From Burkholderiales bacterium (GTDB lineage: Bacteria > Pseudomonadota > Gammaproteobacteria > Burkholderiales > JBBRTU01), in assembly GCA_038244115.1 (NCBI GenBank), contig JBBRTU010000002.1:131238-195237 (forward strand): DNA of 64,000 bases. The letters are read 5' to 3'. The notes under the pieces were generated by a model. The model was given only the letters and a program-made list of their open reading frames with translations. It was not told the DNA's origin and ran no database searches. The position numbers and the translations under genes are program-made. Position 1 is the stretch's first letter. Every line of letters starts with the position of its first letter. This document shows, piece after piece, positions 29,104-57,590 of this stretch.

Positions 29104-29197
29104 GTATTTGATGTTTGTCGAAATTTTTTACATCAGCGCCATGAGATTAAGGCGCCAATATTCTTAACACATTGATTGCAAATGAATTTAACTGCAC

Positions 29198-29213: not shown

Positions 29214-29290
29214 AGATTTCTTAAGCCAAGAGCGGAAGCAAGACGCTTCACGTAGCGTGACCAAAAAATAGATAGGCAGGGAGTATAACA

Positions 29291-30226: not shown

Positions 30227-30302
<76 letters not shown>

Positions 30303-39679: not shown

Positions 39680-40389
39680 GCCTGCTGGAAGTGCGCGGCT
39701 TGTCCGTGTCCTATGGCGGCATCAAGGCGGTGCGCGGTATCGACCTGGAGGTTTGTGAAGGCGAGTTGGTATGTCTGATCGGCGCCAACGGCGCGGGCAA
39801 GACCACCACCTTGAAAGCGCTAGCGGGACTGCTGCCGTCGCGCGGATCGGTGGCTTATCAAGGGAAAAGCATACTTAATTCTCCCTCGCATGAACTGGTG
39901 AAACAGGGCATCGCCCTGGTGCCGGAAGGACGTGGTATTTTCGGACGACTCACGGTAGCAGAAAATTTGGAAATGGGCGCTTATAGCCGCCATGATCGCG
40001 CTGCAATTAAATCTGATTTGCAGCGCGCATACACGCTATTTCCCCGCTTGTTTGAACGCCACGCGCAAAAGGCTGGTACGCTTTCCGGCGGCGAACAGCA
40101 AATGCTTGCCATAGGCCGCGCGTTGATGAGCAGACCGAAATTGTTATTGCTCGACGAACCCAGCATGGGCCTGGCGCCGCTCATGGTTGCGAAAATTTTT
40201 CAAACAGTTAAAGAAATTTCCGCCGAGGGCGTTACCATATTGCTGGTGGAGCAAAATGCCAGACAAGCGCTGGAGGTGAGCCACCGTGGTTACGTCATGG
40301 AAAGCGGAGCGGTGGCAATGCAGGATGAGGCAAAAATGTTGTTCAACAATCCCCAAGTAAAAAGTGCTTATTTGGGAGAATCTGCATGA
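39676..40389 (+). CDS. livF: LIV ABC transporter ATP-binding protein LivF
   Basis: The GTG at 39676 overlaps the livG stop (GTGA). Walker A GANGAGKTT, signature LSGGEQQML, Walker B LLLLDEPSMG. Confidence 0.9.
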   Translation: MSLLEVRGLSVSYGGIKAVRGIDLEVCEGELVCLIGANGAGKTTTLKALAGLLPSRGSVAYQGKSILNSPSHELVKQGIALVPEGRGIFGRLTVAENLEMGAYSRHDRAAIKSDLQRAYTLFPRLFERHAQKAGTLSGGEQQMLAIGRALMSRPKLLLLDEPSMGLAPLMVAKIFQTVKEISAEGVTILLVEQNARQALEVSHRGYVMESGAVAMQDEAKMLFNNPQVKSAYLGESA

Positions 40390-42014
40390 GTACTGATTTC
40401 GAAAGTAAGCGAGTACTGGTTGTGGATGATGACCACGGCATGCGCAGCTCCATGCGCGTGATCCTCAGCACTTTTGGCATCACCCGCTCTGACATGGCGG
40501 CCACTGCCAATGAAGCGATCCGCCGTCTGCAAAACTTACCCTACGACATTATCATGTGCGACTACTTCCTGGGTGATGGCCGCGATGGCCAGCAACTGCT
40601 GGAGGAATTGCGTCACAATCGTCTCATTAAATTATCTACAGTATTTGTCATGGTGACCGCGGAGCGTGGCTACGAAAAAGTAGTGAGCGCGGTTGAGTTG
40701 GCGCCGGACGACTATCTCATCAAGCCGTTTACCGGCGAGCAACTGCGTTCCCGCCTAGAACGCGCGATTTTAAAAAAAGAAGCATTCGCTCCGGTCTACG
40801 AGCTTATGGAAAGTGGTGATTTTCGCGCCGCAATCGCAGCATGTGACGCCATGCTCAAACAGGAGAGCAAGTACGCCATTGACTTTATCCGCCTCAAGGG
40901 AGAGCTGTGCGTTACAGTCGGCGATTTCGCGGAGGCTGAGCGTATTTACCAGCAAGTATTGAGTTCACGAGCCATTCCATGGGCGCGCATGGGTCTGGGC
41001 AAGGCGCTATTTCTTCAAGACAAGTTTGAGGAAGCAGAAGAAATTTTCCAGGAGGTCGTTACAGCCAGTCCTCAATATCTCGAAGCATACGACTGGCTTG
41101 CCGATGCGCATGCCGCCGCAGGCAAGGGAAACGAGGCGCAGGAAATCTTGGCGGCGGGGGCCGCGCGCGCGCCCAACACGCTGCCCAGGCAACGAAAATT
41201 GGGCAGAATAGCTCATCGTAATGGCGACCTGGAGGCGGCGGAGAAGGCTTTTTCCGCCGTGGTGCAAAAAGGCAAACATTCGTATTTTCGCAGCCCGGAC
41301 GACTACGTCAACCTGGGAGGCGTTTTATCGGATAAGGGCAATTTTCAGGAAGCCTTGTCTTTAATGAAGGAGGCGCGCACCCAGTTCAATCACTCCCCCG
41401 AAGCTTCGATGTGCGCGGCAGTGATGGAAAGCGTCATCCACAAAAAGACCGGCAACGAGGAAGAGGCGCAAGCCTCACTCGACGAGGCGTTGCAATGGCA
41501 GGAACGCTACAAGCCGCCTGTTTCAAACCAGATGAAACTCAATATGGCCAATGCCTGTTTTGTGAATGGCCGCGAAGAAGTAGGCAACGAAATTGTCGGC
41601 GACCTGATCAAGAACAACCATGAAGACAAGGCCGTGATGAAACTGGCGGAGCGCATGTTTGAATCTATCGGTCGCGGTGATGCGGGTAAACGATTGATTG
41701 AGGCCAGTTCCAAAGAAATTATTCGCCTCAATAACCAGGCGGTGCGTAAAGCGCAGGAGGGCGACCTGGAAGGCGCCATCGCCATGCTGAAAGACGCGGC
41801 GGTGAAACTGCCGGGTAATGGTCAGATTGTGTTAAACGCTGCTCACGCGCTGTTGGCTTGTGTCGATAAAACAGGCTGGAATGCCGAACACATGGCGGAT
41901 GCGAAACGCTTTCTGGAAAGCGCAAAAGCAAAAGATCCATCTAACCCAAAACTGGGCAAGCTCAGCGCATATCTTCAGGAAGTCGGCAAAAAATACGGTT
42001 CGGGCAAAAGTTAA
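40386..42014 (+). CDS. Response regulator with REC domain fused to a long TPR region
   Basis: 542-aa ORF with REC motifs VLVVDDD, DIIMCDYFL (acceptor Asp), MVTAE and LIKPF. About 400 aa of TPR-like helical repeats follow. The ATG overlaps the livF stop (ATGA at 40386-40389). Confidence 0.8.
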   Translation: MSTDFESKRVLVVDDDHGMRSSMRVILSTFGITRSDMAATANEAIRRLQNLPYDIIMCDYFLGDGRDGQQLLEELRHNRLIKLSTVFVMVTAERGYEKVVSAVELAPDDYLIKPFTGEQLRSRLERAILKKEAFAPVYELMESGDFRAAIAACDAMLKQESKYAIDFIRLKGELCVTVGDFAEAERIYQQVLSSRAIPWARMGLGKALFLQDKFEEAEEIFQEVVTASPQYLEAYDWLADAHAAAGKGNEAQEILAAGAARAPNTLPRQRKLGRIAHRNGDLEAAEKAFSAVVQKGKHSYFRSPDDYVNLGGVLSDKGNFQEALSLMKEARTQFNHSPEASMCAAVMESVIHKKTGNEEEAQASLDEALQWQERYKPPVSNQMKLNMANACFVNGREEVGNEIVGDLIKNNHEDKAVMKLAERMFESIGRGDAGKRLIEASSKEIIRLNNQAVRKAQEGDLEGAIAMLKDAAVKLPGNGQIVLNAAHALLACVDKTGWNAEHMADAKRFLESAKAKDPSNPKLGKLSAYLQEVGKKYGSGKS

Positions 42015-42029
42015 TTTTAGAGGCGAAAA

Positions 42030-42725
42030 ATGGCAGACCAACTCGCGCAACAACCACTTACCCCAGATTTGGCCACCCTCCTTGCCGGCAATATTCACGA
42101 GGTAAAAAACCTTCTGGCGCAATTGTTCCTCGCCCTGGACGAAGCCTCGTTTACTGCACAAACCGATTGCCCCCATCTGGCGCAACGCCTCACCGAGATG
42201 CGTTTGACGGGGCGCCGGGTGCATGACCGGCTGCTGCATATCCTCACTGTGTACAAAGCAGAAAGCGGGTTTTTTTCCGCCAACCTCAATGCATACGATC
42301 CCGCCGAAGTAATTGAAGATCTTGCGCTGGAAGCAAAGTCCCTCGTGGGCAAGCGCTTGAGCGTGACCAATGAATGTCACGCACCGCCACATTGGTATTT
42401 TGATCGCTACCTGGTGGAAAGCGCGCTGACCAACGCGCTACACAACTCGCTACGTCAGGCTCGCTCTCGTATCGCGCTCAGTGCGCATGATGAAGACGGT
42501 TATTTGGTGCTGAAAGTCGAAGACGACGGCCCCGGCTTTCCAGAGGACATGTTGCGAAACGATTCGGTACCATTGTCCAATGGAGAGGAAGGCCGCACTG
42601 GACTGGGTTTGTATTTTTCCCGCACAGCCGCCGCCGCTCATCGGGACAAGGAACGAGCCGGCTTCGTCCGCATCGAAAACGGCGGGAGCTTAGGCGGCGC
42701 AGTGTTTTCGCTTTATCTGCCGTAA
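42030..42725 (+). CDS. Soluble sensor-less histidine kinase core (DHp + HATPase_c only)
   Basis: 231-aa ORF with H-box NIHEVKNLL about 20 aa from the N-terminus, N-box LTNALHNSLRQA, G1 EDDGPGFP and G2 GRTGLGLYFS. It has no TM or sensory domain. Confidence 0.75.
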   Translation: MADQLAQQPLTPDLATLLAGNIHEVKNLLAQLFLALDEASFTAQTDCPHLAQRLTEMRLTGRRVHDRLLHILTVYKAESGFFSANLNAYDPAEVIEDLALEAKSLVGKRLSVTNECHAPPHWYFDRYLVESALTNALHNSLRQARSRIALSAHDEDGYLVLKVEDDGPGFPEDMLRNDSVPLSNGEEGRTGLGLYFSRTAAAAHRDKERAGFVRIENGGSLGGAVFSLYLP

Positions 42726-43049
42726 CACGTGGTGTGTCCAAACTTATGTAGGCAATAGTAGCGCAGGCACATTGACCACCTGTGTCGACCCTCATTGACC
42801 GAGTCTCTGACTATACCCTTGCAATAGCCGCTTTCGGGTGGAGGTTCCACTTACCTTAAATGTCGCAGTCGTGCCAATTGCTGCCATATGTGAATGTCCG
42901 TTGTTGGATCGCGAAATAATGCCGACTATTATTGCTAACCACCTTAGCCGGTCGCGCCACGCACAATTGACGTCGAAAAACTTTACACTTTTCAACGCTC
43001 AACGAGCGATCACTTTCCCAATATAATGAATTAATTGTCTTTATTTTTT

Positions 43050-43065
43050 CGGCATGATTATTGCT
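43050..43065 (+). promoter_or_regulatory. Sigma-54 (-24/-12) promoter CGGCATG-N4-TTGCT
   Basis: cggcatgattattgct has GG and GC at the correct spacing. It is nearly identical to the element at 29198-29213 and lies 86 nt upstream of the start at 43151. Confidence 0.6.
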
Positions 43066-43150
43066 TAAGTTTCCGGCAGTACCAATAAGCTGCGTAGCTT
43101 CTTTTCAAACGCACGAAATACACTCAATAATTATTTAACTGGAGGAAAAT

Positions 43151-43867
43151 TTGAAGTCCAACTCTTGCACCCTACTTGTAATCACATCCCTGTGCCTAGG
43201 TTCGCTGTCTGTGTCCTCTGCATATGCGGCTAGCTACTCAATTGCCGTTATGAATATAACAAGCGGTGGGTTTGTCGCTTATGACTATCTAAATCAACCG
43301 GTTACCAACCCAGATTCAGGCGGTACTTTCACACCTTTTTCAATAATTGGATCTAATACGAATTTGGTCGGGGGCTATCTCGGCAACACCAGTTCTGGCG
43401 CTTTAAGTGGGTTTTGGTATGGCGGCGCATTCCAGATGTACACCGCGCCTTCCAATTTGGGCGGCACTTATGTGCCAGCAGGAACTGTTCAAGGCGGTCT
43501 AGTACCTAGCGGCACGCTAGATAATGTTGCCGGCACTATAACAATGGATTTAAGCTCTTTATTTGCTTACTGGGGTGGTCTTGACTTTCACCAAGGAACC
43601 GGAAAGAACGACGGAGTAACTTCGACACTTGCAACTGGACTATGGGACTCAAGCAGCGGGCATTACAGTTTGTCATGGACTTCAAGTACTAATTTTTCAA
43701 ATAGCAATCCTTACGTGTGCGATTTTCAGTCACCAACTTGCTCGGCAAAATACACGCTAGAAGGTTATGCTGCCACCAGTGCAGTACCTGTCCCTGCGGC
43801 AGTTTATCTGCTTGGATCCGGCATACTTGGCCTCTTAGGCTTTGTTAGCAGGCGCAAGTCAGCTTAA
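43151..43867 (+). CDS. Secreted protein with VPxPA-type (PEP-CTERM-like) C-terminal sorting signal
   Basis: 238-aa ORF with a TTG start 6 nt after ggagga and a signal peptide. The C-terminus is SAVPVPAAVYLLGSGILGLLGFVSRRKSA (motif + TM + basic tail). Confidence 0.75.
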   Translation: MKSNSCTLLVITSLCLGSLSVSSAYAASYSIAVMNITSGGFVAYDYLNQPVTNPDSGGTFTPFSIIGSNTNLVGGYLGNTSSGALSGFWYGGAFQMYTAPSNLGGTYVPAGTVQGGLVPSGTLDNVAGTITMDLSSLFAYWGGLDFHQGTGKNDGVTSTLATGLWDSSSGHYSLSWTSSTNFSNSNPYVCDFQSPTCSAKYTLEGYAATSAVPVPAAVYLLGSGILGLLGFVSRRKSA

Positions 43868-43887: not shown

Positions 43888-43913
43888 AAACGGCGACCAT
43901 TGTGTCGCCGTTT
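43888..43913 (+). terminator. Stem-loop, probable terminator between convergent genes
   Basis: aaacggcgac-cattgt-gtcgccgttt, a 10-bp stem. The weak T-tract (ttt) is partly inside the stem. Confidence 0.55.
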
Positions 43914-44031: not shown

Positions 44032-45321
44032 CTAAATCGGTTCAAAGTCTGCGGCTATGGCGTCAGCGGTTGTAGCGTTCAAACCCGCTTTGTTGGCAAA
44101 TTTCAACCAGCTATCCAGGGCGGCGCGCACGTCCGCCAGCAAATCCAATGGGCGACGGACGCCAAAACGATCCGCTTCTATCAATAAATCGGCGCGCGTA
44201 ATCGCGCCGAACTTCCCGTTGACGTTCATCAGATGCTGATAAGTCCATTCCCCCCGGGGGTTGTAAGCATGCGTCACGTCGTAGGCCGGAGCCAGTTCCC
44301 ATGATCCGCCCTGCTTCAGGCGGAAAGCAGAATTCTTGGTGTGATCGTCACAGTTTTTTGCCATGACATTAAATGCCATGCGGCGGAAAGCTTGGCTGAT
44401 GGCTTCGTCTCCCAATTTGAGCTTGGCGATAACCATGAAAAGCTGGGCGTAGGCATGGGTGGCGCGTTGCTTGTAGTCAAGGTGATCCAGGGCGCAGAGT
44501 GTTTGCACGTGGTGCTTGATAGTGCCTTGGTCACGCGCTTCACGGTCGAAGCGGCGAGTCATGAAGTGAGCTCGGCCACCTTCTTCCAGCAACCGACAAG
44601 GTGACATGCTGATGCCGGCGGCAGTAGCCATCAGCTGGTAGGCGTATTCGATGCGGCCGTAATCCGCAGTGCCGCCCAATTCCAGGTCTTTGCCAATGCC
44701 ATCGAACTTGAGCAACCAATGCTCGAAGCCGGGGGCGGCATCGAACTGGCCGCTGCGAATCTGGTTTGTCTGCGGGTTCCAAGTGACGACTGCTTTCGCA
44801 CGCGCGCCACCCGCAGAGGTGCCGACCCGGATGACATTGGCGAGCGCTGCCTGCGCCTGCACGTCGCCGGACAGATCGCCATGAACCACTTTGCGCGCAG
44901 TTTCTACCAGCGTTTGCATCTCCAGCGGTTCGGCGCTTTCACGATGAGCGCCGCGTGCGGGTTTAAATTCCAGCGCGCCCATGCCACGCTTGCCCATGTA
45001 GGCGAGACGATCGAGCGTGGTGATGGCGCGTTTTTCGACCCCCTTGCGGGTCATCCAGGCATCGATTAGCGCATTGCCGAAGTCGTCGGGCAGCGCGTCG
45101 GCAAGCAATCCGGGCAGTCGTTTGAAGCTGGGTTCGGAAAGATCAGGAAAAGCAAAGGTGGGCTGGATATCATCCAGCGGCATAGTGAGCGGTGCCAATT
45201 CGATTCCGCTACGCCGCCAGGCGGGGTCGTAGGCAAACACATAACAGCCCAGGCGCGGATCTGGCGCCACGGCGCCAACACGCTTACCCCAGATGCGCAC
45301 TTCAATGACTGGGGTATCCAT
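44032..45321 (-). CDS. hipA: Type II toxin HipA-family Ser/Thr kinase
   Basis: 429-aa ORF with a typical HipA N-terminal coupling domain (IWGKRVGAV...) and a kinase core with NCDDHTKNSAF (catalytic loop D.H.KN). Confidence 0.9.
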   Translation of the reverse strand: MDTPVIEVRIWGKRVGAVAPDPRLGCYVFAYDPAWRRSGIELAPLTMPLDDIQPTFAFPDLSEPSFKRLPGLLADALPDDFGNALIDAWMTRKGVEKRAITTLDRLAYMGKRGMGALEFKPARGAHRESAEPLEMQTLVETARKVVHGDLSGDVQAQAALANVIRVGTSAGGARAKAVVTWNPQTNQIRSGQFDAAPGFEHWLLKFDGIGKDLELGGTADYGRIEYAYQLMATAAGISMSPCRLLEEGGRAHFMTRRFDREARDQGTIKHHVQTLCALDHLDYKQRATHAYAQLFMVIAKLKLGDEAISQAFRRMAFNVMAKNCDDHTKNSAFRLKQGGSWELAPAYDVTHAYNPRGEWTYQHLMNVNGKFGAITRADLLIEADRFGVRRPLDLLADVRAALDSWLKFANKAGLNATTADAIAADFEPI

Positions 45322-45641
45322 CAGCTTTCTTTGCGTAGCTTGGCAGTTCGCCGCGCGCGTTGCGGCGCTTTGGCCTGACGCAACAAATCTAGTGGGTTAA
45401 CGCTGATTTCTGGCGCAAGCATCTCAATCCCCTGAAGATATTCGAGCGCCTTCAATACACGCAACAAAGTTTCCACAGTTGAGCCTCGCCCGGCTTCAAG
45501 ATTGCGCAGCGCTTTTTCAGAGATGCCGGCTTTCTCGGCGGTGGTACGTTGATCTAGATTGCGATTTAGACGCAAGCGTCGTAGCCGTTTCCCTAGTACG
45601 GTTTGGAGTTCTTCTGGCGTGTTGAATAGCAGTTCACTCAT
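45321..45641 (-). CDS. hipB: HipB-like XRE-family HTH antitoxin
   Basis: 106-aa ORF with HTH LDQRTTAEKAGISEKALRNLEAG. Its stop overlaps the hipA start (TGATG). Confidence 0.85.
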   Translation of the reverse strand: MSELLFNTPEELQTVLGKRLRRLRLNRNLDQRTTAEKAGISEKALRNLEAGRGSTVETLLRVLKALEYLQGIEMLAPEISVNPLDLLRQAKAPQRARRTAKLRKES

Positions 45642-45913: not shown

Positions 45914-47377
45914 TCACAGCATTTTCAGATATTCAATCAAGGCCTCCTTATCAGTAGCAGGCAGCGTGGTGCCGTATTCATGCCCCCGGTTGCTGTTACC
46001 TTTGCGGCTTGCGTCCTGCTTGGAGCCTACGCGTTGCGCATCCTCACCCTGCACGATGAAGCCGGCATTCACCTGGTCGTACACGTCATAACCACGGTAG
46101 AACACGCTGGGCCGTTCGGCGGCTGGCGTCAATAGATCGCGTAGCGTCGGCACCGAACCATTGTGCAGGTAGGGCGCACGCAGCCAGATGCCGTCGAGAA
46201 AGGGGATGAGGTAACCGGTCAGGGTTTCCTCCACCAGCCCCTTGCGTTCCAGCCCCATGTCGCGCACCGTCTTGTTGGCGGCAATGGCGGCGGACTTGTT
46301 CCACGAATCCAGGCGACCTCTGTCGGTGCCGATCTCGGCTAGCAGCATGCGTGTGCCGGTACGCGCGCTAGCGTGGCAACTGGCGCAGTGCTGGTCGAAC
46401 ACCGTCTTGCCCTGCGCCGCTTTGTGCTTATCCAGCGCAAACGGATACTTCGGCGCGGGTTCTTTCAACAAATACTCGTGCAACCACTTTACCTGGCCGA
46501 GAAACGCTTGCTTGTCGTGCGGCGCGGCGCCGAGCACGCCGAGCGCAGAATCCATAATGACGGAATAAGCGTCGTGGCTATCGCCAGCCAGATTCATGAA
46601 CATGCCTTGTTCCGCTTTGTACTTTTGCAGGTTCCATACCGATGGCATGTCTGTCGGACCGAAGGTGTCGTCCATCGGTGCCTTGATCATGAAGTACTTG
46701 GTGAGGTTCATCGCGTCATCGCGCCCGCGCCCCCAGTCGGGAAAGTCCTTGCGGTAGATCCAGGCGAACTGCGCTTCGCGCTCGAGCAATCTCTTTTTTG
46801 TCATGGGGATGATGAGGTAGCGGTAGGCCAATTTGTCGATCCAGTCGAGATCGGTCACCAGCGCAATTTCGGCCATTATGTTGTCGGCATTAAAGCGCGG
46901 ATCGCGCGCACAGTCGACCAGGTAGCGGAAAAATGCCTGGACGTTGGTGGTGTGCCCCGGGCCGGCCACCACGTAAGTTGGCTGCTCATCCGGCTTCGAG
47001 CGGTAGCTTGCGGTGTGACACACAGCGCAATTATTACCCACACGCGGGAAGCCGATAACCTTTTTGGTGAATCCTACCGGCAGCTCCTGGCCCGGTTCCC
47101 ATGGCACACCGAGCGAAGCGTAGCCACCCGGCCCCGGCAGTTTTTCCGGGAACATGCGCGGCAGTACGTAGAAAATCCAGTAAGGAATGCCGGCATCGAA
47201 CTCGGCGCCGATGGAGCCGTATTTGAAACGCATCTCGGGGGTGGCCGTCACCCAGTCAGGCTGCGCCTCCTCGCGAAAAAACTTGTACCAGCCGACAAAG
47301 GCGCCCACCATGCCGAGCACCAGCAGCGCAATGCCGAACGCACGCAACAGCCGGCAATTTTTCATCAAGCAAGCCAT
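45914..47377 (-). CDS. Membrane-anchored di-haem c-type cytochrome, CCP/MauG-like C-terminal signature (paralogue A)
   Basis: 487-aa ORF with an N-terminal TM anchor and two CxxCH sites (CAVCH, CASCH). Motifs LRAPYLHNGSVPTLRDLL and a C-terminal GHEYGTTLPATDKEALIEYLKML. RBS gggga precedes the ATG. Confidence 0.75.
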   Translation of the reverse strand: MACLMKNCRLLRAFGIALLVLGMVGAFVGWYKFFREEAQPDWVTATPEMRFKYGSIGAEFDAGIPYWIFYVLPRMFPEKLPGPGGYASLGVPWEPGQELPVGFTKKVIGFPRVGNNCAVCHTASYRSKPDEQPTYVVAGPGHTTNVQAFFRYLVDCARDPRFNADNIMAEIALVTDLDWIDKLAYRYLIIPMTKKRLLEREAQFAWIYRKDFPDWGRGRDDAMNLTKYFMIKAPMDDTFGPTDMPSVWNLQKYKAEQGMFMNLAGDSHDAYSVIMDSALGVLGAAPHDKQAFLGQVKWLHEYLLKEPAPKYPFALDKHKAAQGKTVFDQHCASCHASARTGTRMLLAEIGTDRGRLDSWNKSAAIAANKTVRDMGLERKGLVEETLTGYLIPFLDGIWLRAPYLHNGSVPTLRDLLTPAAERPSVFYRGYDVYDQVNAGFIVQGEDAQRVGSKQDASRKGNSNRGHEYGTTLPATDKEALIEYLKML

Positions 47378-47386
47378 GCTTTTCCC

Positions 47387-48862
47387 CTAGAAAGTTTTCA
47401 TATATTCGATGAGTGCTGCCTTGTCTTCCGGCGGCAGTGTGGTGCCGAAACGCGGGCCATCGTGGCCCTGATTGCCGTTGCCGGACAGTCTGGTGTCATA
47501 GCGGAAATATTTGCGCGCGCCTTCCTCTGCGACAGTGGAAACGAAGCCCATGCGAACGGCGTCGTACACGTCGTATCCCCGGTAAAATATTTTTGGCCGC
47601 CTGTCTGCGGGTTCGAGTAGATCGGCCAGGGTCGGCACCGAACCATTGTGCAGATAGGGCGCGCGCAGCCACAATCCATCCAGCGGCGCATTGGCGTAAC
47701 CCCAGGTTTTACGGAAGTGGCTGAAGCGCTCGTCGCCATAGCCGGCATACACCGTGGCCTGGTTCAGCGCGAGGTCGGGCGTGTAGGAATCCAGGCGCCA
47801 ACGGTCCGTGCCGATGTCAAGAATCGGCGTGACCTTGCCCACGTATTCCCCGCTGAAGTTGCTGCCATTCACACCGTGGCATGCAGCGCAGTATTGTTGA
47901 TACACACCTTTTCCGCGCGCCGCTCGGTTCTGGTCGATGGGATAAGGCCAGGGCGGCGGGGTGGCAGTGGCCAGCCAGGCTTCCACGCGCTTGAGATTAT
48001 GGCGATCCAGCGTGGGCGGCGTGGTGCCGGCGCCCAACGCAGCGCTGTGATTGCGCTCCTCCAGCTTGTCATTATTGCCGTCCCAATGCAGTTGCATGCC
48101 ACGCTTCTTGGCCTGATTCCAGATGGCGGGGAAATCTGCCGTGCCGATCAGTTCGTGCGGGTCGGCGCGGTGCCAGGGCATGTTGAACAACGCCTTGGCC
48201 GAGTTGAAAGTATCCACCCTACCCGGCCCCCACTCGGGTTGACCATCGATAAAGGAGAAGCGCTCACGCAGCATCATCAGTTGTTCGCGCATGAGCAAAG
48301 TTGCCAGCGGGTAGACCAGGTAATGGTCGATCAGGTCGAGTTTGCCGCCGGTCTTTTCGATGGCGGGAATCATATATTCGCGCGAGAAACGCTTGTCGGC
48401 GGCACACTGAAAGAAAAATTTCTCGAAGCGCATCAGATCGAAAGAATTAGCCGGCATACCGGCGACAATGCGTGGCGTGGATGCTGGCGTGTCGCGCACG
48501 GTGTTAACGTGGCAAACCGCGCAATTGAGGAACACCCGATTCATGCCTTGATAGCGGCGCTGGGAAGTACCAATGGGAAGGTCGCGACCTTTTTCGTAGA
48601 TCATGCCGAGTGAAGCATAACCCTTGCCCGGCAGCAGATCCGGGCACACCTCAGGCAGCGCTTTCCAGATGCGGTAGGGGAAACCGGAGACGCGCTCGCC
48701 ACCCAGAGAGCCATACTGGAAGTGCTGTACCGGATCGCGGTATTCCACGGGGGAATCGCCGGAGAAGCGCCAAGCCAGGTACAGCACCAGCAGCAGGCCG
48801 ATACCCGCCAGGAAAAAAAGCGCGGTGCATATACATCCGCGCAGAGTGCAAAGTCGAGACAT
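47387..48862 (-). CDS. Membrane-anchored di-haem c-type cytochrome (paralogue B)
   Basis: 491-aa ORF colinear with paralogue A, with CAVCH and CAACH sites. Motifs LRAPYLHNGSVPTLADLL and GHDGPRFGTTLPPEDKAALIEYMKTF. Confidence 0.75.
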   Translation of the reverse strand: MSRLCTLRGCICTALFFLAGIGLLLVLYLAWRFSGDSPVEYRDPVQHFQYGSLGGERVSGFPYRIWKALPEVCPDLLPGKGYASLGMIYEKGRDLPIGTSQRRYQGMNRVFLNCAVCHVNTVRDTPASTPRIVAGMPANSFDLMRFEKFFFQCAADKRFSREYMIPAIEKTGGKLDLIDHYLVYPLATLLMREQLMMLRERFSFIDGQPEWGPGRVDTFNSAKALFNMPWHRADPHELIGTADFPAIWNQAKKRGMQLHWDGNNDKLEERNHSAALGAGTTPPTLDRHNLKRVEAWLATATPPPWPYPIDQNRAARGKGVYQQYCAACHGVNGSNFSGEYVGKVTPILDIGTDRWRLDSYTPDLALNQATVYAGYGDERFSHFRKTWGYANAPLDGLWLRAPYLHNGSVPTLADLLEPADRRPKIFYRGYDVYDAVRMGFVSTVAEEGARKYFRYDTRLSGNGNQGHDGPRFGTTLPPEDKAALIEYMKTF

Positions 48863-50877
48863 TACGTTCCTCCATGCGCCGGGAGACAGGGCGCAAGCGT
48901 GTCGAATGGACGTGCCAGTACACCGGGCGCATGTGCCCCCAGCAGCAATCCAGCATGTTGTTTGAGTTTGGCGAGCGCAGTGCCGTGTGTCCAGGCATCA
49001 ATAGAAATGCCGCGCATCTGCAATACAGTGGCGGGCGGCATCGGGGTGCGTTCCCGCGCCGCCTCGTCCACTCTCCACATCGACAGGCGGTAGTAGATGC
49101 GCTCGGCGCAGTGTGAAAGCTGGGTCTGCACCTGCGCTTCTTCGCCATGTAAAAAATTAGGCGGGAACGCTTCCTGGGTGTCATGGCAGAGACCACAGTG
49201 GGCGCGGAATTCCGTCACTATGTTGCTGGCATGGCCCGCGCTGGGTGCAATGTCAGTCTGCGCTGACGAATATTTTTGTGCCGCTGCTGCGTGGTGTGGA
49301 ATGCCCACGCCCGCAAACAAAGCGGGTACCAGTGCCGCGTGCCGAATCGGCCCCGCAAGCGCCTCGGCTCGGCTGCGCACCATGGCATCGAGCGTGGAAT
49401 CCACCACGCCGAATTCGTCGCGCAGTTGCAGCGTGGCGTGAGCGCCGGTTGGCGTAATCTGCACATCGATGGCGATCACGCGCTGTGCGGACACGCTGCG
49501 CACATTGCGCCCGTCGCGTCGCAAGCCGAAATGCAATGCACCTGCATGCGCTGTTCCTGCCATCACCTCGACAGTGGCCAGCGCGGGCTGACCGGGCAGT
49601 TCCAGTGCATCGAGCGTGCCGCGCACTACTCGACCAGCGCGCACGAACACGCGTCCGCGCAGGCCGAATCCTGCCGCATCCTTCGGCTGGCAGTTGAGTG
49701 AAAACCGATTTTCAGAATCTGTATTTCGTTGCTCCACCGCGCATTCAGCGGCGAGGTTGCGGGTACTTTCTGCCTGGCGCGACAGAGCGGCGTCCAGGCT
49801 GGCGATATCGCGCGCACTGAAAAAATCCGCCACGCCACTTACCAGATTCGCGGCGGCGGTATCCACGTCCCATACAGCCATCGGCGGACGCTGGCGCAGC
49901 GGGTCTGACTCAGCCGTGATGGCGCTGGTCAGCGGATTGCGATTGGGAATATGCGCGTCGGGAATAGCCAAGCCGCCGTGCCAACGTGAAAGAAAAGCAC
50001 TGTGCAGGGTAGGGAGCACGATCTCACGCCACGCCGCCGAGTCATGTTCGAAGTCGAGGCCGCCTGAGAGTCGATATTGCAGCGCGAGTTTAACGGCGGC
50101 AGCGCGGCAGCGCACTGCCTCTGGCGTGGCGCCACCGCACGCTTCGCGCCATAGAAACTGGTATACGTTAAGCAGGCTGGCACGACTGGTGGCGTCATCC
50201 ACCGCGCTGGGTATGTCTACACCGATGTCCAGTGGCGCGCCATAGAAGTCGCGGTGAGTAGCCTTGAGACGCTGGCGCACGCCATCGTTGGCAGCGGTTT
50301 CGTCCCATAGCGGGCGAGAAAAAACCGGTGCCGCGTTCTGATGGCAGGCCAGGCAAAGACCGCGCTGGGCATACACCACACGCGGCGCGGCGCCGGGCCG
50401 GTAATTACGTACTACTTGATATTCGAAGCGGCCTGCCTCTTCGTTGTAACTGATGGCCTCGATCACGCCGGCCTTCTCGTGATAGCCGAGATAAATGCGA
50501 TCGCGCAGCAATGGCTCACCCGCGCGCGACTCTCCATCCACCGCCACTACCAGCCGCGGATATCTGAAGAAATCCGGCGCAGCGGCATTGCGCACCAATG
50601 AGCGCCCCATGGGGATGAGTACCTGGCGCACCGGATCTGTGCTGCCAGATTCCATGTGCATACGCAGTTGTGCCACCACGCTGGAAAAGGGGAAGGGCAG
50701 GCGATAGCTACCGTTAGCCGTGTACAGTTCATCGAACAGCGAACGACCCCTTGGCGGCAGATCCGGGCCGGGCCTACCGGGATCAATGGCCCACACCGGC
50801 GGCGTAGACGTCATGCCCTCAGCCATGGCTGGCGCCGTGAAAAATAACAGGGTCATGATCCACGCCACACGCGTCAT
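48862..50877 (-). CDS. Secreted 671-aa di-haem c-type cytochrome of unrecognised family
   Basis: Start at the internal Met (MTRVAWIMTLLFFTAPAMAEG signal peptide), whose ATG overlaps the upstream stop (ATGA). CLACH lies in the N-terminal third and CGLCH near the C-terminus. Confidence 0.7.
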   Translation of the reverse strand: MTRVAWIMTLLFFTAPAMAEGMTSTPPVWAIDPGRPGPDLPPRGRSLFDELYTANGSYRLPFPFSSVVAQLRMHMESGSTDPVRQVLIPMGRSLVRNAAAPDFFRYPRLVVAVDGESRAGEPLLRDRIYLGYHEKAGVIEAISYNEEAGRFEYQVVRNYRPGAAPRVVYAQRGLCLACHQNAAPVFSRPLWDETAANDGVRQRLKATHRDFYGAPLDIGVDIPSAVDDATSRASLLNVYQFLWREACGGATPEAVRCRAAAVKLALQYRLSGGLDFEHDSAAWREIVLPTLHSAFLSRWHGGLAIPDAHIPNRNPLTSAITAESDPLRQRPPMAVWDVDTAAANLVSGVADFFSARDIASLDAALSRQAESTRNLAAECAVEQRNTDSENRFSLNCQPKDAAGFGLRGRVFVRAGRVVRGTLDALELPGQPALATVEVMAGTAHAGALHFGLRRDGRNVRSVSAQRVIAIDVQITPTGAHATLQLRDEFGVVDSTLDAMVRSRAEALAGPIRHAALVPALFAGVGIPHHAAAAQKYSSAQTDIAPSAGHASNIVTEFRAHCGLCHDTQEAFPPNFLHGEEAQVQTQLSHCAERIYYRLSMWRVDEAARERTPMPPATVLQMRGISIDAWTHGTALAKLKQHAGLLLGAHAPGVLARPFDTLAPCLPAHGGT

Positions 50878-51746
50878 TCTGCCTTGGCAACGACATGCTG
50901 CTGCGTGCCGCTCCAGCAATCCTCGGGAGTCTGTCCAGCGCGGAATGCCTTGCGCCCGGCATTGTCGAGCGCTTTGCTATAGAGCGTGAAGTTGAGCAGG
51001 AAGGCGCGATCGGTATATGCCCGCCCCAGGTAGAAGCCGGGCCGTATCATGCGGATATCATCGCGCACCTGGAGGCCGCGACGACCCGCCAGAAAATCGG
51101 GGCGCTCGTGGTAGCCGGGCAAGTCATCGGAGAAAGCGTAGTCGATGATAATGGACTCGCGCCGTCCGTCGAGCAGGCTCTGGCCGCAGTAGAGTTTGGC
51201 CGGAAACAGCAGCCAGGCGTCGCGTCCATCCACGCTGATTTTTTGCAGTGATGCTGGGTTATCGATGATGGGTTTTAGAAGCGCCAAGTCGTCGATGCGG
51301 TTGCGCAGCACGCGTTGATCCCGGTAAAACACTTTGCCTTTCCATAGGGTTTCGCCGGCCATATCGAGCTTGCGCACGCCGAGCTGTGCGGTTAGGCCGG
51401 AAAGCCCGCCAAGGATCTCTGCTGCGCGGAATTTGCCCGAAGAACCTTTGGGGAACTGGATTTTTCCATCGAACGGCCCGTCCGGAATCGGTCCGGCGGT
51501 AAGCCGTGCGTAGACTTGGTCAAGCTGCTCCTGATCCAACGTGGCAAGATATTCGGGGGTGATTCTCTCCAGCTCCTTGGCGGGGATGGGGAAGCGGTGC
51601 TCCACCTCGGCGAGATCCATCTTGCTGGAATAAGCCTCTGCATAAGGCGCGAACTTGATTTCCGGTTTGGGTTTGAACATTGCTGCAATCTGGTCACACC
51701 CGGATAGCATAATGAGGAGCATGGTCACAATAAGCGCGCGTTTCAT
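50874..51746 (-). CDS. Lipoprotein of unknown function
   Basis: 290-aa ORF with lipobox LLIMLSGC and RBS gggaga. I recognise no family. Confidence 0.65.
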   Translation of the reverse strand: MKRALIVTMLLIMLSGCDQIAAMFKPKPEIKFAPYAEAYSSKMDLAEVEHRFPIPAKELERITPEYLATLDQEQLDQVYARLTAGPIPDGPFDGKIQFPKGSSGKFRAAEILGGLSGLTAQLGVRKLDMAGETLWKGKVFYRDQRVLRNRIDDLALLKPIIDNPASLQKISVDGRDAWLLFPAKLYCGQSLLDGRRESIIIDYAFSDDLPGYHERPDFLAGRRGLQVRDDIRMIRPGFYLGRAYTDRAFLLNFTLYSKALDNAGRKAFRAGQTPEDCWSGTQQHVVAKAE

Positions 51747-51866
51747 GGAGTTTCTCCCTTGGGCGATAAGTTTTTGGTGTCTGCCATGGTGGTTTCCTCG
51801 AAGCTGAAAATGGTAGTTGGGCGTGGTGGGGTAAGCGGGGGCGCTTGTGTTTTTGCCGTGGATGCT

Positions 51867-51886
51867 GCTGCGCGGCGCCGCGCAGC
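51867..51886. repeat. Perfect 20-bp GC-rich palindrome in intergenic spacer
   Basis: gctgcgcggc|gccgcgcagc, read directly. It lies in the 225-bp gap between the 846-aa cytochrome gene and the lipoprotein gene. Confidence 0.8.
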
Positions 51887-51971
51887 TCGGCTGCAGACAC
51901 TGGGTAAACCTCGCGGCGCTGGAGCAAGTTTTGCGTTTCGCTTCATGTCAGTTCCTGGAATGCCGTTCGAA

Positions 51972-54512
51972 CTAAAGCGTCGCGAGGAAGGCAATCAAAG
52001 CCTTCTTATCGGTATCACTCAAGTCCTGGCCGAAACGGTGTCCGTCGTTTTCCACGTCTGCGGTGCAAGAGCTGTAAACCTCCAGCAGCAGCGGCAGCCG
52101 TTCCTTTGCTGCTTTCACCGCCGTGAGCAATTGCGCTGGATCGTTGACAATAGCGCTGGCGATAGTCTTCATTTCCTGCGCCACCTTGTGTCCGTTGTCC
52201 GGGCCAAGCTGCTTGACCAGCCTGGCTTCCAGCACTTCCGGCTGGGTCTTGGCCTGCACTAAATCCACGATAAATGGCTTGTGCTGGAAATTGCCGAGTA
52301 GCCCGGCGTTGGTGCCTGCCGGTATGCGCAGCGTGAAGCCGAAGAGTTTTTTCTCCTCATGACCATCCCATACTTTTGGCCCCAGATCGAGCACGATGTC
52401 CTGGTCCAACTTGGTGATCTTGGGGATGCGTCGCTCCGGATAAAGCAATTCCTGCATCGACGCCTTGTACAACTTATAACGCCCTTCCACACTGGGATCG
52501 TAAGCCCAGCATCCCGGCTGTTTGTCGCTGGGGAGCAATTGCTTGGTCTGCGCATCGACATAGGACGGTCGGTAAAAATCATACGGCTGACCGGTGCCCC
52601 AGCCGCATATCTCCGGGCCTAGCGCGTTGTTATGCATGAATGGCGCGTGCGCCCACAGATTCAGCAGCGAAATATTGCGGTACTGACCGCGGCCACCACC
52701 GTTTTTCTCGGGGATGCCATTGTCGGCTGGCAACGCATGATGGGTAACCGAAGCGAATTCGTCCCACACGTGGCCGGTCATGTGGTTGGAGTGCAATGCT
52801 CGGCAACGGAAGGTGCCGACTTCGGAAGCGGGGGTATGTTTGTCATTGCCGAGCCAGTCTGCGCGCAGACCGGTTTCCTTGGACACGGCATAAAAATCTT
52901 CTTTGCCGGGCTGGCTGGAATGACAACGCGCGCAATTCGCCGCGAACACCCCACGGCCACGGCTGACTGCGCCCTTGTCATATTCGTGTTCCAGATCGGC
53001 AACCAGATCGTCATGGCTGTAGCGCGCCTGCGGATTTTTTTGCTTGAGCATGTTCTCTCGCGCAATGGAAAGATCGGTGGCAGTTGCCTCCTTGGAAGTG
53101 AGGAAGGCGAGGATGTCGGGTAGCCGATCCTCAATCGCACGGAAGTTGGGGCAATCGCGTCGGCACTGGCCAATGCTGAAGGGCGTCTGGCCGAAATTGC
53201 GCGCCTTGGGATCGAGTTGCCTCAGGTCGGTGAGGTGATTCACCCAGCATTGTTCGGAGCACGACCCAATATTAAAGTACACGCGCTGGATAGCACCAAG
53301 CGCGCCAATGGAATCACCGCCATCCTTGAGAATGTGGTGCACGGCTTCTTCCTTTTCGCCACGCTGCCAACACTTGCCCGGTTTGCCAGGCTCACACCAA
53401 CACGCCGTGTCGGGTTCGTCGGCAGCGCAGGAAGCCGTTTTGCGCCAGGCGATGACGCGTTCGCCGGGGTGGGTCGGACGCTGCAGAATGTTAATCAGCG
53501 CGTTCATGGTGCCGGGGTTATTGATCTGGTCAGTGGGCACCGCCGAGGTGTCGCTGGTGCCGGGGCGGGCATGCGCGAAGACCTGCCATTCCAGCGAATC
53601 GCGCGGCATACCGGAAACCATGATTTCCGAAATGTGCGAGTATTGATTACCGATTGCGCCCTTCAGATTTTCCCATCCGGGATGCGCCGGATCTGCCGGC
53701 GGATTGGCAGGATCAAAGGCGATATGACAGGTGCCGCACGCCATGCCAATGCGGAACGGCGGTTGAATCGAGCCATCGACTAGCTTGCTGACTTTGGAAT
53801 CGGACAGCTCCGGATTGACGGAGAGCTTGCGGTTGTAACCTTCCCAGGTACCGAGCTTGCCACCGTTCAGCTGCTTCCATGCTGCGGCGTTGAACAATGG
53901 GTTGGGGAATTTACGCAGCCCCATGATCCCGCTGGAGGTGCCGAATGCCAGGTCGCAAGATGATTGCCTTTGACTTGCATGGCGATCCTTGGGATCAGCC
54001 GGTGCGTCTTTGAAGTCGCAAGCTGCGTCGCGGTAGCCGCTCTTGCCGACGAATTTCAGCAGCTTGTCATCACCCGGACACCAGTCCAAACCGTAAGTCT
54101 CTTCAGGACTTTTTGCGGGACAGTTGGGTGAACCGGGTCGACAGCAGCCGGGGTCGTTGATCATGCCCCAGGTCTTGAAGCGCTCGTCGCGCTTGTCCGT
54201 GCGCAACACACCAAACCAGTCGATCATGACGCCAATGCGTTGCTGAAATACATAAGTATGGAAGCGCTCGTTGCCGGCGGTGGCTTTGTACCAAATCTCC
54301 CGTCCGGCGCGCGCAGAGGGAGTAAGGTCGGCTGCCGCTTGATAAAAACCCGCCTCACTATAATCGCTGCTCACGACCGGCGGGGGTGCTGGCTGCGCAG
54401 CAGCAACTGTCACTTCACGCGCAGCGGGTTGGCCGGTCGGCTGGGCAGCAATGCCGGTTGAAACTCCGAACCCAAAAAACACCAGCGCAGCAATAATCTT
54501 GCCAATTCTCAT
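51972..54512 (-). CDS. Secreted Cys-rich 846-aa di-haem c-type cytochrome, distant paralogue of A/B
   Basis: Signal peptide, then CGTCH and CARCH sites. LWAHAPFMHNNALG and a C-terminal GHRFGQDLSDTDKKALIAFLATL parallel paralogues A and B. More than 20 additional cysteines. Confidence 0.75.
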   Translation of the reverse strand: MRIGKIIAALVFFGFGVSTGIAAQPTGQPAAREVTVAAAQPAPPPVVSSDYSEAGFYQAAADLTPSARAGREIWYKATAGNERFHTYVFQQRIGVMIDWFGVLRTDKRDERFKTWGMINDPGCCRPGSPNCPAKSPEETYGLDWCPGDDKLLKFVGKSGYRDAACDFKDAPADPKDRHASQRQSSCDLAFGTSSGIMGLRKFPNPLFNAAAWKQLNGGKLGTWEGYNRKLSVNPELSDSKVSKLVDGSIQPPFRIGMACGTCHIAFDPANPPADPAHPGWENLKGAIGNQYSHISEIMVSGMPRDSLEWQVFAHARPGTSDTSAVPTDQINNPGTMNALINILQRPTHPGERVIAWRKTASCAADEPDTACWCEPGKPGKCWQRGEKEEAVHHILKDGGDSIGALGAIQRVYFNIGSCSEQCWVNHLTDLRQLDPKARNFGQTPFSIGQCRRDCPNFRAIEDRLPDILAFLTSKEATATDLSIARENMLKQKNPQARYSHDDLVADLEHEYDKGAVSRGRGVFAANCARCHSSQPGKEDFYAVSKETGLRADWLGNDKHTPASEVGTFRCRALHSNHMTGHVWDEFASVTHHALPADNGIPEKNGGGRGQYRNISLLNLWAHAPFMHNNALGPEICGWGTGQPYDFYRPSYVDAQTKQLLPSDKQPGCWAYDPSVEGRYKLYKASMQELLYPERRIPKITKLDQDIVLDLGPKVWDGHEEKKLFGFTLRIPAGTNAGLLGNFQHKPFIVDLVQAKTQPEVLEARLVKQLGPDNGHKVAQEMKTIASAIVNDPAQLLTAVKAAKERLPLLLEVYSSCTADVENDGHRFGQDLSDTDKKALIAFLATL

Positions 54513-54605
54513 ATCGTTTTCTCCAATTAAGTGTAGTGATTAGTGCTGCCTTGGTTGCCTTAATCAGTATAGACAAGGCAAAAAAAAGTAAAGGTGGCGA
54601 CAAAT

Positions 54606-57590
54606 TTATTTGATGTGGCCAGCCACCTCCCTCACCCACTGGTCACAACTTGATGCCCCGTTACCTTTCCAGTAACCATTTCCAAATAACTCTTCGCCGG
54701 TTAGCAAACCCAGCTGCCGGTAACTTTCAAATTGCGGCTCGTCGAACCACTGGTCAGATGTTGGCTGGTGCGGAAAATCCTGGTGTGTGGTCGCACAATG
54801 ACGCACGTCTATTGGTTCATTGCCGCACAGCAGGGGCTTGACGTAGACCAGGACGCCTTTTTTTCCCGATGCATATTTTATGCGCCCGATAACAAAACGG
54901 ATGCGCGCTTTCGGCTCCTGTTCCAACATCGGTGCCACATCAATGTCTATTTCCGCGCCCATATCTATGCGGCAATTGAGCACCGCGTTTCCCAGGTCTT
55001 CAAATTCGAAGTCAGCGTCACAGCCCCCGTCGCACACCACAATCAACTTGCATTCCCGCCGCACCAATTCGTACAGGCCCAAATTTTCAAAATGGCCGCC
55101 ATCGGAAAGATTAATAAATTGGCTTTGATCGTCCGTGCTGCAGAGCAGTTCTTTCAGTAAGCACCCCAATCCGAACGTGGGGCTGGACAACCTCCTTGCA
55201 TTTTCATATTTTGGATTGCCGCACCACCGTCCCAGCCGGACATTGAAAAAAGTCATGATAAAAGCCAGTGGCGGCGACGTATGGTAGCCTTGATTAGGGC
55301 TTGCCGCCGCGCCGGAAACGGCTATCGCCGTACCCAGCTTGGCGCCTTCCGTAGCCTCTTTCCCCCACCCTTCCTTGCTCATGTATTCCCTGGTTTCACA
55401 GTAGGCTTGCTGCTTATCTGTCAACCTATAACCGCAATGCCTGGGTGAAAAAATGAACGAGCCGCTTAGCCTTTGCTGCCATTCCAAATGTCCTTCCTCG
55501 TTGCCAGCACTAACGGTTTGAGGATTGCTTCCCTTAGTCAAATTCAGCGCGGCATTCACTAAATGAACGGGCCGCTGATTCTCTAATCTGGACATTGGCA
55601 AATCATCGTTGGGATCAAAATCGGTGAAGGCATCACCGCGCCGCACAGGGTTGGAAGCACCGAGGTAACAGCGGGTCAAGCGGTTGCGGTAAAACTGGTG
55701 CATTGAAAACAGATTAATGTCGACCCGAAAAGCCAGAAAAATGCCTACCAGCAGAGAAATCACCATCGCTCCGGGGATGGCATATTCATACTTCGCCCAA
55801 ACCTTCTGTTCCTCAACATAGGTCGCATCTGCGTAGGCTGAGAAATTGGTTGCCCGTTCAGCAAACCAGGTTTCAAGTTTGAAGTTCCGCTCGTCATCGG
55901 CATTATTCTCCATTTGCAATTCATAACGCCTGTGCAGAGGCGTTGCGGTGCCCGATTTAGCCTGGGCTGTCGCAATCACCGGCTGTATTCCCGCGTACTT
56001 CATAAGGCCCTTGTGCGTCCCGACGGACAACAATACGAGCAGCCCGACAATGAACACGTAGGGCGTAATTTTTGCCAAGACCTCCAACCATTTATTGGCG
56101 CACTTGCCGCCCGTTTTTTCGCTGCGCGCTAACAGAACTCCGGCAGTGGAGGATGCCAGCCATGCAATACCGCCGCTGTATGCAAGCCAGGCGCCAAGAT
56201 AATTCCACATTGCCGCACCATAAAACGACACCAGACATAGTCCCGTCCAGGCGAGCTGAATTGCGATAACCAGGCCACCAATACGGCCCAGCCATTCCCG
56301 GCCCTCTTCGCTAAAGTGCCGTTTGCCGATACCAATATGTATCACCAGTCCGAGGCTGAGAATTTGAAACACCGCCGCAGTACCTAAGCCGAAAAGCATC
56401 CAGCTAATATGCTTCACGTCCACCATCATTCCCACCAACTTGGCGCAGCCATAAAGCATCAGCCCCATCGCCGCACCAGGGATTGTCGGAAATAGAAACA
56501 AAAACCAGCGTCGCCACCATTTCCCATCGGGCGAGGCGGCTCCTTCTCCCTTATGTGACTTGGCTAGCCTGGTACGAGCAATTAACCAACCCAGTGACCA
56601 AACCGCACAGTAAATAATGGCACCCGTCGCAGCCCACCAAAGTGCGCCGCCTTCCAGATCGGTAAATTTTTCTTTTAGGGATACGAACTCGGCGGTCACA
56701 ATGAGTGAGGTTAAAAAACCGGGCAGCACCACTCTCATCAAAACCCAAAGACCGTTCGGGCAGCATTTGTCCTTATCATTGTCCTTGTTGCCGTTTCCCT
56801 GCGTGCTACTGGCCAAGGTATTCAACCCTCTTGCAACGCTGGTCGCGGCAAAGATCAACAGGAACGCCAAGGCAACGAAGATCCAGCTACATTCCAGTGA
56901 CCTAATATGAGCCGTCGTATCAGGCGACACAGGAATACCCAAATATGTCAGGCTCGCCAACATGTACTGGCCGAGCCGGGGCGGGGCTTCCCAGAGGGGA
57001 AGCAGCATAAGAGGAAACAGCAACAAGGCCGTTAGCAAGGAAAGCAATATGGCTTGGTTCAGCAACAAATTGCGGGATATATTTGCGACTGCCGCTAGCG
57101 TGTCCAGACTGAAGACACCGTATCGCGGCGTAAGATAATTGCTGTAACGGCGCAGCCAATTAATGGCATGGCCCTCGGGTTTTCTTGGCTCTTTTTCTGT
57201 CTCTGGCCGGGTCTGGATTTCAGCTTCCACCGCTTTGATGGCTAGAGCAATAGACTTCTCTGGTTCTTCCTTTTCAAGCGGATTGATCAACGCTTCGGCT
57301 TTCCTGTTCAGCAGCGCAGAAAACCATCCGCCGATATACCCACCCCCCGAAACTGTGGAGAGGTAATCAATACGCCGCAATAGTCTTTTATTTGCCATTG
57401 CCTGCAGGATGCCGAGATTGAAGGTGGCGCTTCGAATCCCACCACCAGAAAATGCCAGTCCGAATAGCGCGAGGTCCTGACCACCATCGGCTGGGCGCTT
57501 TCCATCCACAGCATCGCGGCAATGACGGATTACCGCCTTTTCACACTCAAAAACTTCCGCCCACATTGGTGCTATTGAATCTTCCGTCAT
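54606..57590 (-). CDS. Patatin-like phospholipase with a large polytopic membrane insertion
   Basis: 994-aa ORF with oxyanion motif FSGGGIRSA (aa 48-55), nucleophile elbow TVSGGG (Ser81) and Asp motif LSDGGHFENLG (Asp about 830). Roughly 10 hydrophobic helices lie between them. RBS ggggaga. Confidence 0.8.
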   Translation of the reverse strand: MTEDSIAPMWAEVFECEKAVIRHCRDAVDGKRPADGGQDLALFGLAFSGGGIRSATFNLGILQAMANKRLLRRIDYLSTVSGGGYIGGWFSALLNRKAEALINPLEKEEPEKSIALAIKAVEAEIQTRPETEKEPRKPEGHAINWLRRYSNYLTPRYGVFSLDTLAAVANISRNLLLNQAILLSLLTALLLFPLMLLPLWEAPPRLGQYMLASLTYLGIPVSPDTTAHIRSLECSWIFVALAFLLIFAATSVARGLNTLASSTQGNGNKDNDKDKCCPNGLWVLMRVVLPGFLTSLIVTAEFVSLKEKFTDLEGGALWWAATGAIIYCAVWSLGWLIARTRLAKSHKGEGAASPDGKWWRRWFLFLFPTIPGAAMGLMLYGCAKLVGMMVDVKHISWMLFGLGTAAVFQILSLGLVIHIGIGKRHFSEEGREWLGRIGGLVIAIQLAWTGLCLVSFYGAAMWNYLGAWLAYSGGIAWLASSTAGVLLARSEKTGGKCANKWLEVLAKITPYVFIVGLLVLLSVGTHKGLMKYAGIQPVIATAQAKSGTATPLHRRYELQMENNADDERNFKLETWFAERATNFSAYADATYVEEQKVWAKYEYAIPGAMVISLLVGIFLAFRVDINLFSMHQFYRNRLTRCYLGASNPVRRGDAFTDFDPNDDLPMSRLENQRPVHLVNAALNLTKGSNPQTVSAGNEEGHLEWQQRLSGSFIFSPRHCGYRLTDKQQAYCETREYMSKEGWGKEATEGAKLGTAIAVSGAAASPNQGYHTSPPLAFIMTFFNVRLGRWCGNPKYENARRLSSPTFGLGCLLKELLCSTDDQSQFINLSDGGHFENLGLYELVRRECKLIVVCDGGCDADFEFEDLGNAVLNCRIDMGAEIDIDVAPMLEQEPKARIRFVIGRIKYASGKKGVLVYVKPLLCGNEPIDVRHCATTHQDFPHQPTSDQWFDEPQFESYRQLGLLTGEELFGNGYWKGNGASSCDQWVREVAGHIK

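Follow-up and report, generated by a model that had tools for sequence, protein, structure and literature searches.

The region at positions 42971–43066 of the window (the whole stretch of DNA that we analysed, 64,000 nucleotides from a Burkholderiales bacterium) is very probably a PEP-CTERM-box control region with an enhancer-dependent σ54 promoter, situated in front of a single gene for a secreted 238-aa protein with a VPVPA tail. Comparison of sequences gave good support to the prediction that this VPVPA-tailed gene is co-regulated with PEP-CTERM genes. The two-part architecture is a rediscovery of the PEP-CTERM cis-regulatory region of Proteobacteria described by Haft, Paulsen, Ward and Selengut (2006, BMC Biol 4:29, PMC1569441), and not a new regulon or mechanism; what we add is small, namely a VP-x-PA family that appears to be co-regulated with PEP-CTERM genes in this lineage and an IHF-like third block in the spacer. 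The control region sits in a 425-nt intergenic region (42726–43150) and, together with the gene that it precedes, comprises the following features:

42971–42987, + strand: motif 1 (PEP-CTERM box; putative PrsR enhancer site), CGTCGAAAAACTTTACA, sequence read directly
43019–43028, + strand: IHF-like element CAAtataATG (putative DNA-bending site), −32 to −23 from the GG
43050–43066, + strand: motif 2, σ54 promoter cGGCATGattaTTGCTt, with the −24 GG at 43051–52 and the −12 GC at 43063–64
43141–43145, + strand: Shine-Dalgarno sequence GGAGG, 5 nt ahead of the TTG start
43151–43867, + strand: single gene for a 238-aa secreted all-beta protein, open reading frame with a TTG start
43888–43913, + strand: hairpin, likely terminator, 21 nt past the stop codon (−16.1 kcal/mol, z-score −2.96)

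Within motif 1, the 16-nt box GTCGAAAaacTTTACA (= gtcgaaaaactttaca) occupied 42972–42987, with 79 nt from its start to the GG of the promoter, and the σ54 16-mer cGGCATGattaTTGCT (= cggcatgattattgct) at 43050–43065 showed canonical GG-N10-GC spacing. An earlier sequence-only reading had placed a distal box and a correctly spaced GG and GC at these positions, and both its coordinates and its letters proved exact. Motif 1 matched YGTCGRWWNNNKTTACA at 14 of 14 positions, as did only one other site in the 64-kb window, and its 17 nt ended in TTTACA at the 3′ end, like motif 1 of Haft et al. (2006); its degenerate and flanking bases were consistent with those of the 120 database matches listed. Motif 2 matched TGGCACG-N4-TTGCW at 10 of 12 positions. 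The two 17-mers were separated by 62 nt (63 nt to the GG, a distance within the modal class of the at least 120 database instances described below), and a further 84 nt separated motif 2 from the TTG start codon. CAAtataATG was in register with the third block found in the database instances except at one position (A instead of T at −25), and from its sequence may be an IHF-binding bend site. Repeats inside the 425-nt intergenic region were limited to short, chance-level matches, the 5′ leader had no Rfam RNA (the sole Rfam match in the window was a tRNA-Ala), and a σ70 promoter scan returned only weak 9/12 matches near 43102–43131.

The hairpin past the stop codon folded better than any of 200 shuffled sequences (0/200 folded equally well), and the next gene, hipA, is convergent, indicating that the 43151 gene is a single-gene operon. 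This hipA (429 aa; HipA_C, Couple_hipA) forms a toxin-antitoxin pair at 44032–45641 (−) with an HTH antitoxin of 106 aa. Beyond it, 45914–57590 (−) holds two tandem di-haem cytochrome c peroxidase-like genes (NF040606) and then four open reading frames (685, 290, 846 and 994 aa) that had no NCBIfam match at E ≤ 1e-10. On the other side, directly upstream of the promoter and just after a branched-chain amino-acid ABC transporter cluster, a pair of genes at 40386–42725 (+) encodes a 542-aa receiver-domain and TPR protein, whose TPR part weakly matches PrsT, and a 231-aa protein with a histidine-kinase ATPase domain only.

The same control region occurs a second time in the window, at 29 kb, in front of a PEP-CTERM gene that lies directly 3′ of prsT:

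26158–29103, + strand: PrsT, TPR protein of the XrtA/PEP-CTERM regulatory system (TIGR02917, 607 bits; cut-off 312)
29116–29132, + strand: twin motif 1, TGTCGAAATTTTTTACA, upstream of XDP1
29198–29214, + strand: twin σ54 promoter TGGCATGaaacTTGCTa, 11/12 against the consensus
29291–30157, + strand: XDP1, exosortase-dependent PEP-CTERM surface protein (NF041927, 176 bits; cut-off 125)

XDP1 also scored 23.9 bits against TIGR02595 (cut-off 16) and 29.5 against PF07589. Its 16-nt box is GTCGAAAtttTTTACA at 29117–29132 and its σ54 string TGGCATGaaacTTGCT at 29198–29213 (GGCATGAaacTTGCT at 29199–29213). The spacer measured 65 nt between the 17-mers and 66 nt to the GG, the XDP1 start codon followed motif 2 after 76 nt, and an IHF-like TAAcacaTTG at 29165–29174 was in register with motif 1. 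A tRNA-Ala gene (CGC; 30227–30302, −) lies 70 nt past XDP1, between XDP1 and lgt. A relaxed scan of the window (GTCG-N7-TTACA, 50–85 nt, GG-N10-GC) found no site beyond the two already known. Five further motif-1-like sites, at 9432, 28740, 56484, 57836 (−) and 59439 (12–13/14), were rejected: four had no σ54 site at the right distance, and that at 9432 had only a bare GG-N10-GC string behind it. One of these four, TGTCGGAATTCTTAACA at 28740–28756 (+), matched motif 1 at 13 of 14 positions. It lies within prsT at its 3′ end, 376 nt ahead of the XDP1 box, and could be a chance match or a remote auxiliary site.

Both regions resemble the published one closely. In the available text of Haft et al. 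(2006), most proteobacterial PEP-CTERM genes are described as single-gene operons after long intergenic regions, and 99 of 167 PEP-CTERM genes are preceded by a 17-nt motif 1 with a 3′ TTTACA, a spacer of 62.8 ± 10.6 nt and a 17-nt σ54 motif 2 (−24/−12), the end of which lies 71 ± 38.5 nt from the start codon. The same text reports that the phylogenetic profile of the motif was matched only by the NtrC-type response regulator PrsR, the kinase PrsK and PrsT, and assigns the regulatory region to PrsR. Our two regions share with that description, as far as its text was available, the TTTACA 17-mer, the spacers (62 and 65 nt), the distances to the start codons (84 and 76 nt), the σ54 GG and GC, the long intergenic region, the single-gene operon and the presence of prsT in the genome. 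They differ in the tail encoded downstream, which at 43 kb is VPVPA instead of PEP and falls just under the PEP-CTERM model cut-off. The source, an uncultured betaproteobacterium whose nearest named IlvD sequences are from Sulfuricella and Sulfurimicrobium (86% identity), appears to lie outside the species named in that paper, the available text of which held no mention that we found of an IHF-like third spacer block.

Experimental precedent comes from other species. In Aquincola tertiaricarbonis RN12, transcription of pepA needs RpoN1, and its start site was mapped downstream of TGGCAC/CTGCTT, with a predicted enhancer upstream (PMC9850573). In Zoogloea resiniphila MMB, a PEP-CTERM gene is under the control of RpoN and PrsK-PrsR, according to the account of Gao et al. 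(2018) in PMC9012009. RpoN dependence has thus been shown by experiment for the pepA genes of Aquincola and Zoogloea and is a prediction from sequence for the 43151 gene, whose product is no PepA equivalog and carries a variant tail.

We evaluated how widely this architecture occurs by scanning 185,579 species genomes with the pattern GTCGRWWNNNKTTACA-N58-70-GGCAYN5TTGCW, which returned at least 120 loci; a rough estimate under uniform base composition gave about 14 chance matches for the whole collection. Most of these loci were named as Alpha-, Beta- or Gammaproteobacteria, the matches listed including Massilia, Undibacterium, Thauera, Azoarcus, Dechloromonas, Thiobacillus, Nitrosomonas, sphingomonads and Rhodospirillales, among others. 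A gene encoding a PxP motif followed by a hydrophobic stretch and a basic tail was found within 300 nt downstream of 72 of the 104 evaluable sites among the matches listed, compared with 5.9% for random positions in the same loci. The 72 downstream proteins from the matches listed included 59 that matched TIGR02595 and 16 that matched VPLPA-CTERM, at E ≤ 0.01. Twelve of these 72, judged by eye, carried tails without the glutamate (six VPAP, two IPAP, and one each of TPIP, IPLP, VPLP and VPTP), indicating that among the matches listed a variant tail behind a PEP-CTERM box is common elsewhere too. Though the pattern permitted 58–70 nt, the spacer was 63–65 nt in 97 of the 120 matches listed. Positions left free by the pattern were also biased: in these 120 matches the base before GTCG was T in 76% and C in 18% (T or C in 93%), and the base before the GG was T in 79%. 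A third fixed block was visible within the spacer of the 120 matches listed (L006–L125), with A at −31 (83%), T at −25 (66%), K at −24 and R at −23 from the GG. It reads WAA-N4-TKR and resembles the IHF core, and on this resemblance the block may bind IHF.

Conservation among orthologues followed the same elements. We identified 61 homologues of the 238-aa protein, two of which (P0023 and P0039) are named by NCBI as VPLPA-CTERM proteins, and the VP-x-P tail (VP[VLIAT]P) was invariant in all 21 that were aligned. All five close orthologues with upstream DNA (L003, L126, L157, L001 and L159; 59–67% identity) kept both motifs, with motif 1 at 13–14/14 and a σ54 site 63–66 nt away, while the remaining upstream DNA had diverged. 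The TTG start after GGAG(G/A) recurred in the close orthologues L003 (466) and L126 (1314). Three distant gammaproteobacterial homologues (L127, L130 and L146; about 45% identity) kept box and promoter as well. However, the box was missing in about 22 of 25 distant homologues (31–49% identity), including that of Sulfuricaulis limicola, and mostly the σ54 promoter was missing too, which indicates that the link to the regulon is lineage-specific rather than family-wide. On this wider metagenome sample of distant homologues, we abandoned the notion that the family in its entirety is linked to the PEP-CTERM box. Gene neighbours of the orthologues were not conserved. At L157, a second gene (998–1678, 226 aa) begins 14 nt after the VPxPA gene and may be a tandem paralogue. 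In some distant homologues (L129 2780–2840, L005 255–280, L127 2815–2851, L130 2818–2854, and L144), a TGTAAA precedes the TTTACA of the box by 31–33 nt, and the 14-mer TAGTATTGTTTACA occurs in both L129 and L005, with its orientation reversed between them; the TGTAAA-TTTACA arrangement may be a variant or doubled enhancer.

Since the intergenic regions are AT-rich (39–44% GC versus 55.6% for the whole window), the likeness of the two distal boxes could in principle be accidental, leaving at most the σ54 promoter functional. The sequence-only reading had raised this itself, proposing a genome-wide count of GTCGAAA-N3-TTTACA as the test. Run on both strands of the 64-kb window, the count gave exactly two exact matches against 0.001 expected from base composition, each 63–66 nt before a σ54 site. 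GGCATG-N4-TTGCT, part of the GGCATGA...TTGCT that the same reading had seen in both promoters, likewise had exactly two exact matches in the window (0.03 expected from base composition). The worry about chance was justified for the bare pairwise similarity, as a 13/16 shared 16-mer at any offset between the two 110-nt upstream stretches arose in 37 of 1000 dinucleotide shuffles (3.7%), but not once the box was held at an equal offset (within 5 nt), when only 11 of 5000 shuffles gave the same match. Single σ54-like strings do arise by chance. One such string, TGGCAAGATTATTGCT at 54489–54504 (−), matched at 11 of 12 positions and was rejected, being inside the first codons (MRIGKIIAALVFF) of the open reading frame 51972–54512, where it falls in signal-peptide codons behind a well-formed ribosome-binding site; we regard it as a chance resemblance and a useful negative control. 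The question is settled by external evidence: the box agrees with an independently published motif, is kept in all five close orthologues, and is associated across databases with PEP-CTERM-type genes among the matches listed. A chance origin of the distal box is effectively refuted, and we give it almost no weight.

A second explanation for the likeness is shared ancestry, with one promoter cassette recently duplicated or moved and no selection for a common regulator. In its favour, the exact blocks common to both sites are unusually long, with 7 + 6 nt shared between the boxes and GGCATGA and TTGCT between the promoters. Against this, the two upstream regions could not be aligned outside the motifs, the spacers were unrelated in sequence and differed in length (63 versus 66 nt), and the downstream genes are unrelated except for the tail, so the likeness is block-wise and not from a recent duplication. 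Neither flanking homology nor transposon or repeat boundaries were seen around the two regions, and orthologous promoters keep the same blocks only, the mark of selection acting on binding sites. We consider recent duplication highly improbable and retain the reading of two control regions serving one predicted regulon. The proposal of a common regulon for both genes is upheld, as a prediction from sequence, by the published architecture, the database association and the five close orthologues. The accompanying proposal that the VPxPA-type protein goes with the PEP-CTERM system also finds support as far as predicted co-regulation is concerned, with the qualification that the link is lineage-specific, most homologues of 31–47% identity being without the box.

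Which activator reads the box is a separate matter. The PrsK and PrsR genes were absent from the 64-kb window by profile search, the assignment of PrsR to motif 1 comes from phylogenetic profiling and mutant phenotypes, and we found no report in the literature of direct PrsR binding to motif 1. The window does contain an NtrY/NtrX-like pair, and its sole σ54 activator (17226–18488) is NtrX-like (TIGR02915, 173 against a cut-off of 502.6), so that a σ54 promoter with a box read by this protein, or by an activator tied to the two-component-like pair at 40386–42725 directly upstream, can be envisaged. We judge this unlikely. The same box is found before a bona fide PEP-CTERM gene next to prsT and before PEP-CTERM genes of many genera, and only PrsK, PrsR and PrsT match the phylogenetic profile of the motif in the available text of Haft et al. 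(2006). The 40386 protein had neither a σ54 AAA+ domain nor a DNA-binding domain in a domain search, and the neighbours of the orthologues are not conserved. PrsR is retained as the putative activator.

The 238-aa protein carries a Sec signal peptide (..SSAYA/AS) at its N-terminus; its C-terminal tail, VPVPAAVYLLGSGILGLLGFVSRRKSA, is laid out as VPVPA, the hydrophobic stretch AVYLLGSGILGLLGFVS and then RRK-SA, with VPVPAA in place of Pro-Glu-Pro. It shows the PEP-CTERM pattern of a signal peptide, a hydrophobic stretch and a C-terminal basic cluster, and its VPVPA, transmembrane helix and RRK tail make up a putative variant of the PEP-CTERM sorting signal. In a regex scan of the open reading frames of at least 60 codons in the window, PxP-type C-terminal tails were found in only two, the two genes behind the paired elements. 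The AF2 model (pLDDT 81.4) has an all-beta body with an N-terminal helix at residues 4–17 and a C-terminal helix at 215–237; no PDB fold matched it with E below 0.02. Over its full length the protein stayed just short of three curated cut-offs, those of TIGR02595, PF07589 and TIGR03370. TIGR02595 (PEP_CTERM; cut-off 16) gave 14.2 bits, or 16.3 when confined to the last 55 aa, PF07589 gave 14.7 (cut-off 20.7), and the match to the PepA model NF033554 was weak (22.3 bits, cut-off 80). The protein resembles VPLPA-CTERM (TIGR03370) proteins in its C-terminal VP-x-PA, hydrophobic helix and basic cluster, yet as a whole it scored 17.7 bits, short of the cut-off of 25.35, and it fits PEP-CTERM almost equally well (14.2 versus 16). 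The VPVPA tail may be sorted or processed by an exosortase, though co-regulation is no proof of processing.

By analogy with NtrC-type systems and the published model, control of the 43151 gene can be pictured as follows. RNA polymerase carrying σ54 would bind the −24/−12 elements at 43050–43066 in a closed complex. PrsK would phosphorylate the NtrC-family protein PrsR, which in its phosphorylated form would bind the partially dyad-symmetric box at 42971–42987, 63 nt upstream. A bend at the IHF-like element (about 43019–43028) would probably aid DNA looping and allow PrsR to meet the polymerase, and ATP hydrolysis by PrsR would then open the promoter. The predicted transcript begins near 43076, covers the one gene at 43151–43867 and ends at the hairpin at 43888–43913. 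As the XDP1 gene at 29291 has the same control region, both genes should switch on together. Classical NtrC/NifA-type promoters comprise a dyad upstream activating sequence (UAS) such as TGT-N10-ACA, an IHF site and a −24/−12 promoter. The present layout resembles these in having a UAS, a putative bend site and a σ54 promoter, with a partial dyad TGT-N11-ACA in the XDP1 box, but its box is PEP-CTERM-specific, the UAS is nearer (about −90 from the predicted start) and it is present in one copy. Many NtrC-type activators bind two or more sites, whereas each promoter here has a single strong box, a motif scan finding no second copy above 11/14 at either.

With rather more doubt than conviction, we propose that the PrsR/σ54 PEP-CTERM regulon has recruited a conserved family of secreted all-beta proteins with VP-x-PA tails and without a recognised fold, and that the box region carries a third IHF-like element at a fixed position. 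If this is true, the recruitment would have occurred in a single betaproteobacterial lineage as well as in certain Gammaproteobacteria from vents or marine sites, and XrtA-type exosortases, or a co-regulated sorting enzyme, would accept tails without the PEP glutamate. With the 43151 gene, the PrsK/PrsR/RpoN regulon gains a further predicted target; in environmental Proteobacteria this regulon controls the matrix proteins of flocs and biofilms. The control region also offers evidence, at the level of sequence, that genes with a non-PEP (VP-x-P) tail are switched on alongside classical PEP-CTERM genes. This evidence is of use in annotation, as NCBI-type models leave the 238-aa protein unnamed, and it bears on the substrate range of exosortases.
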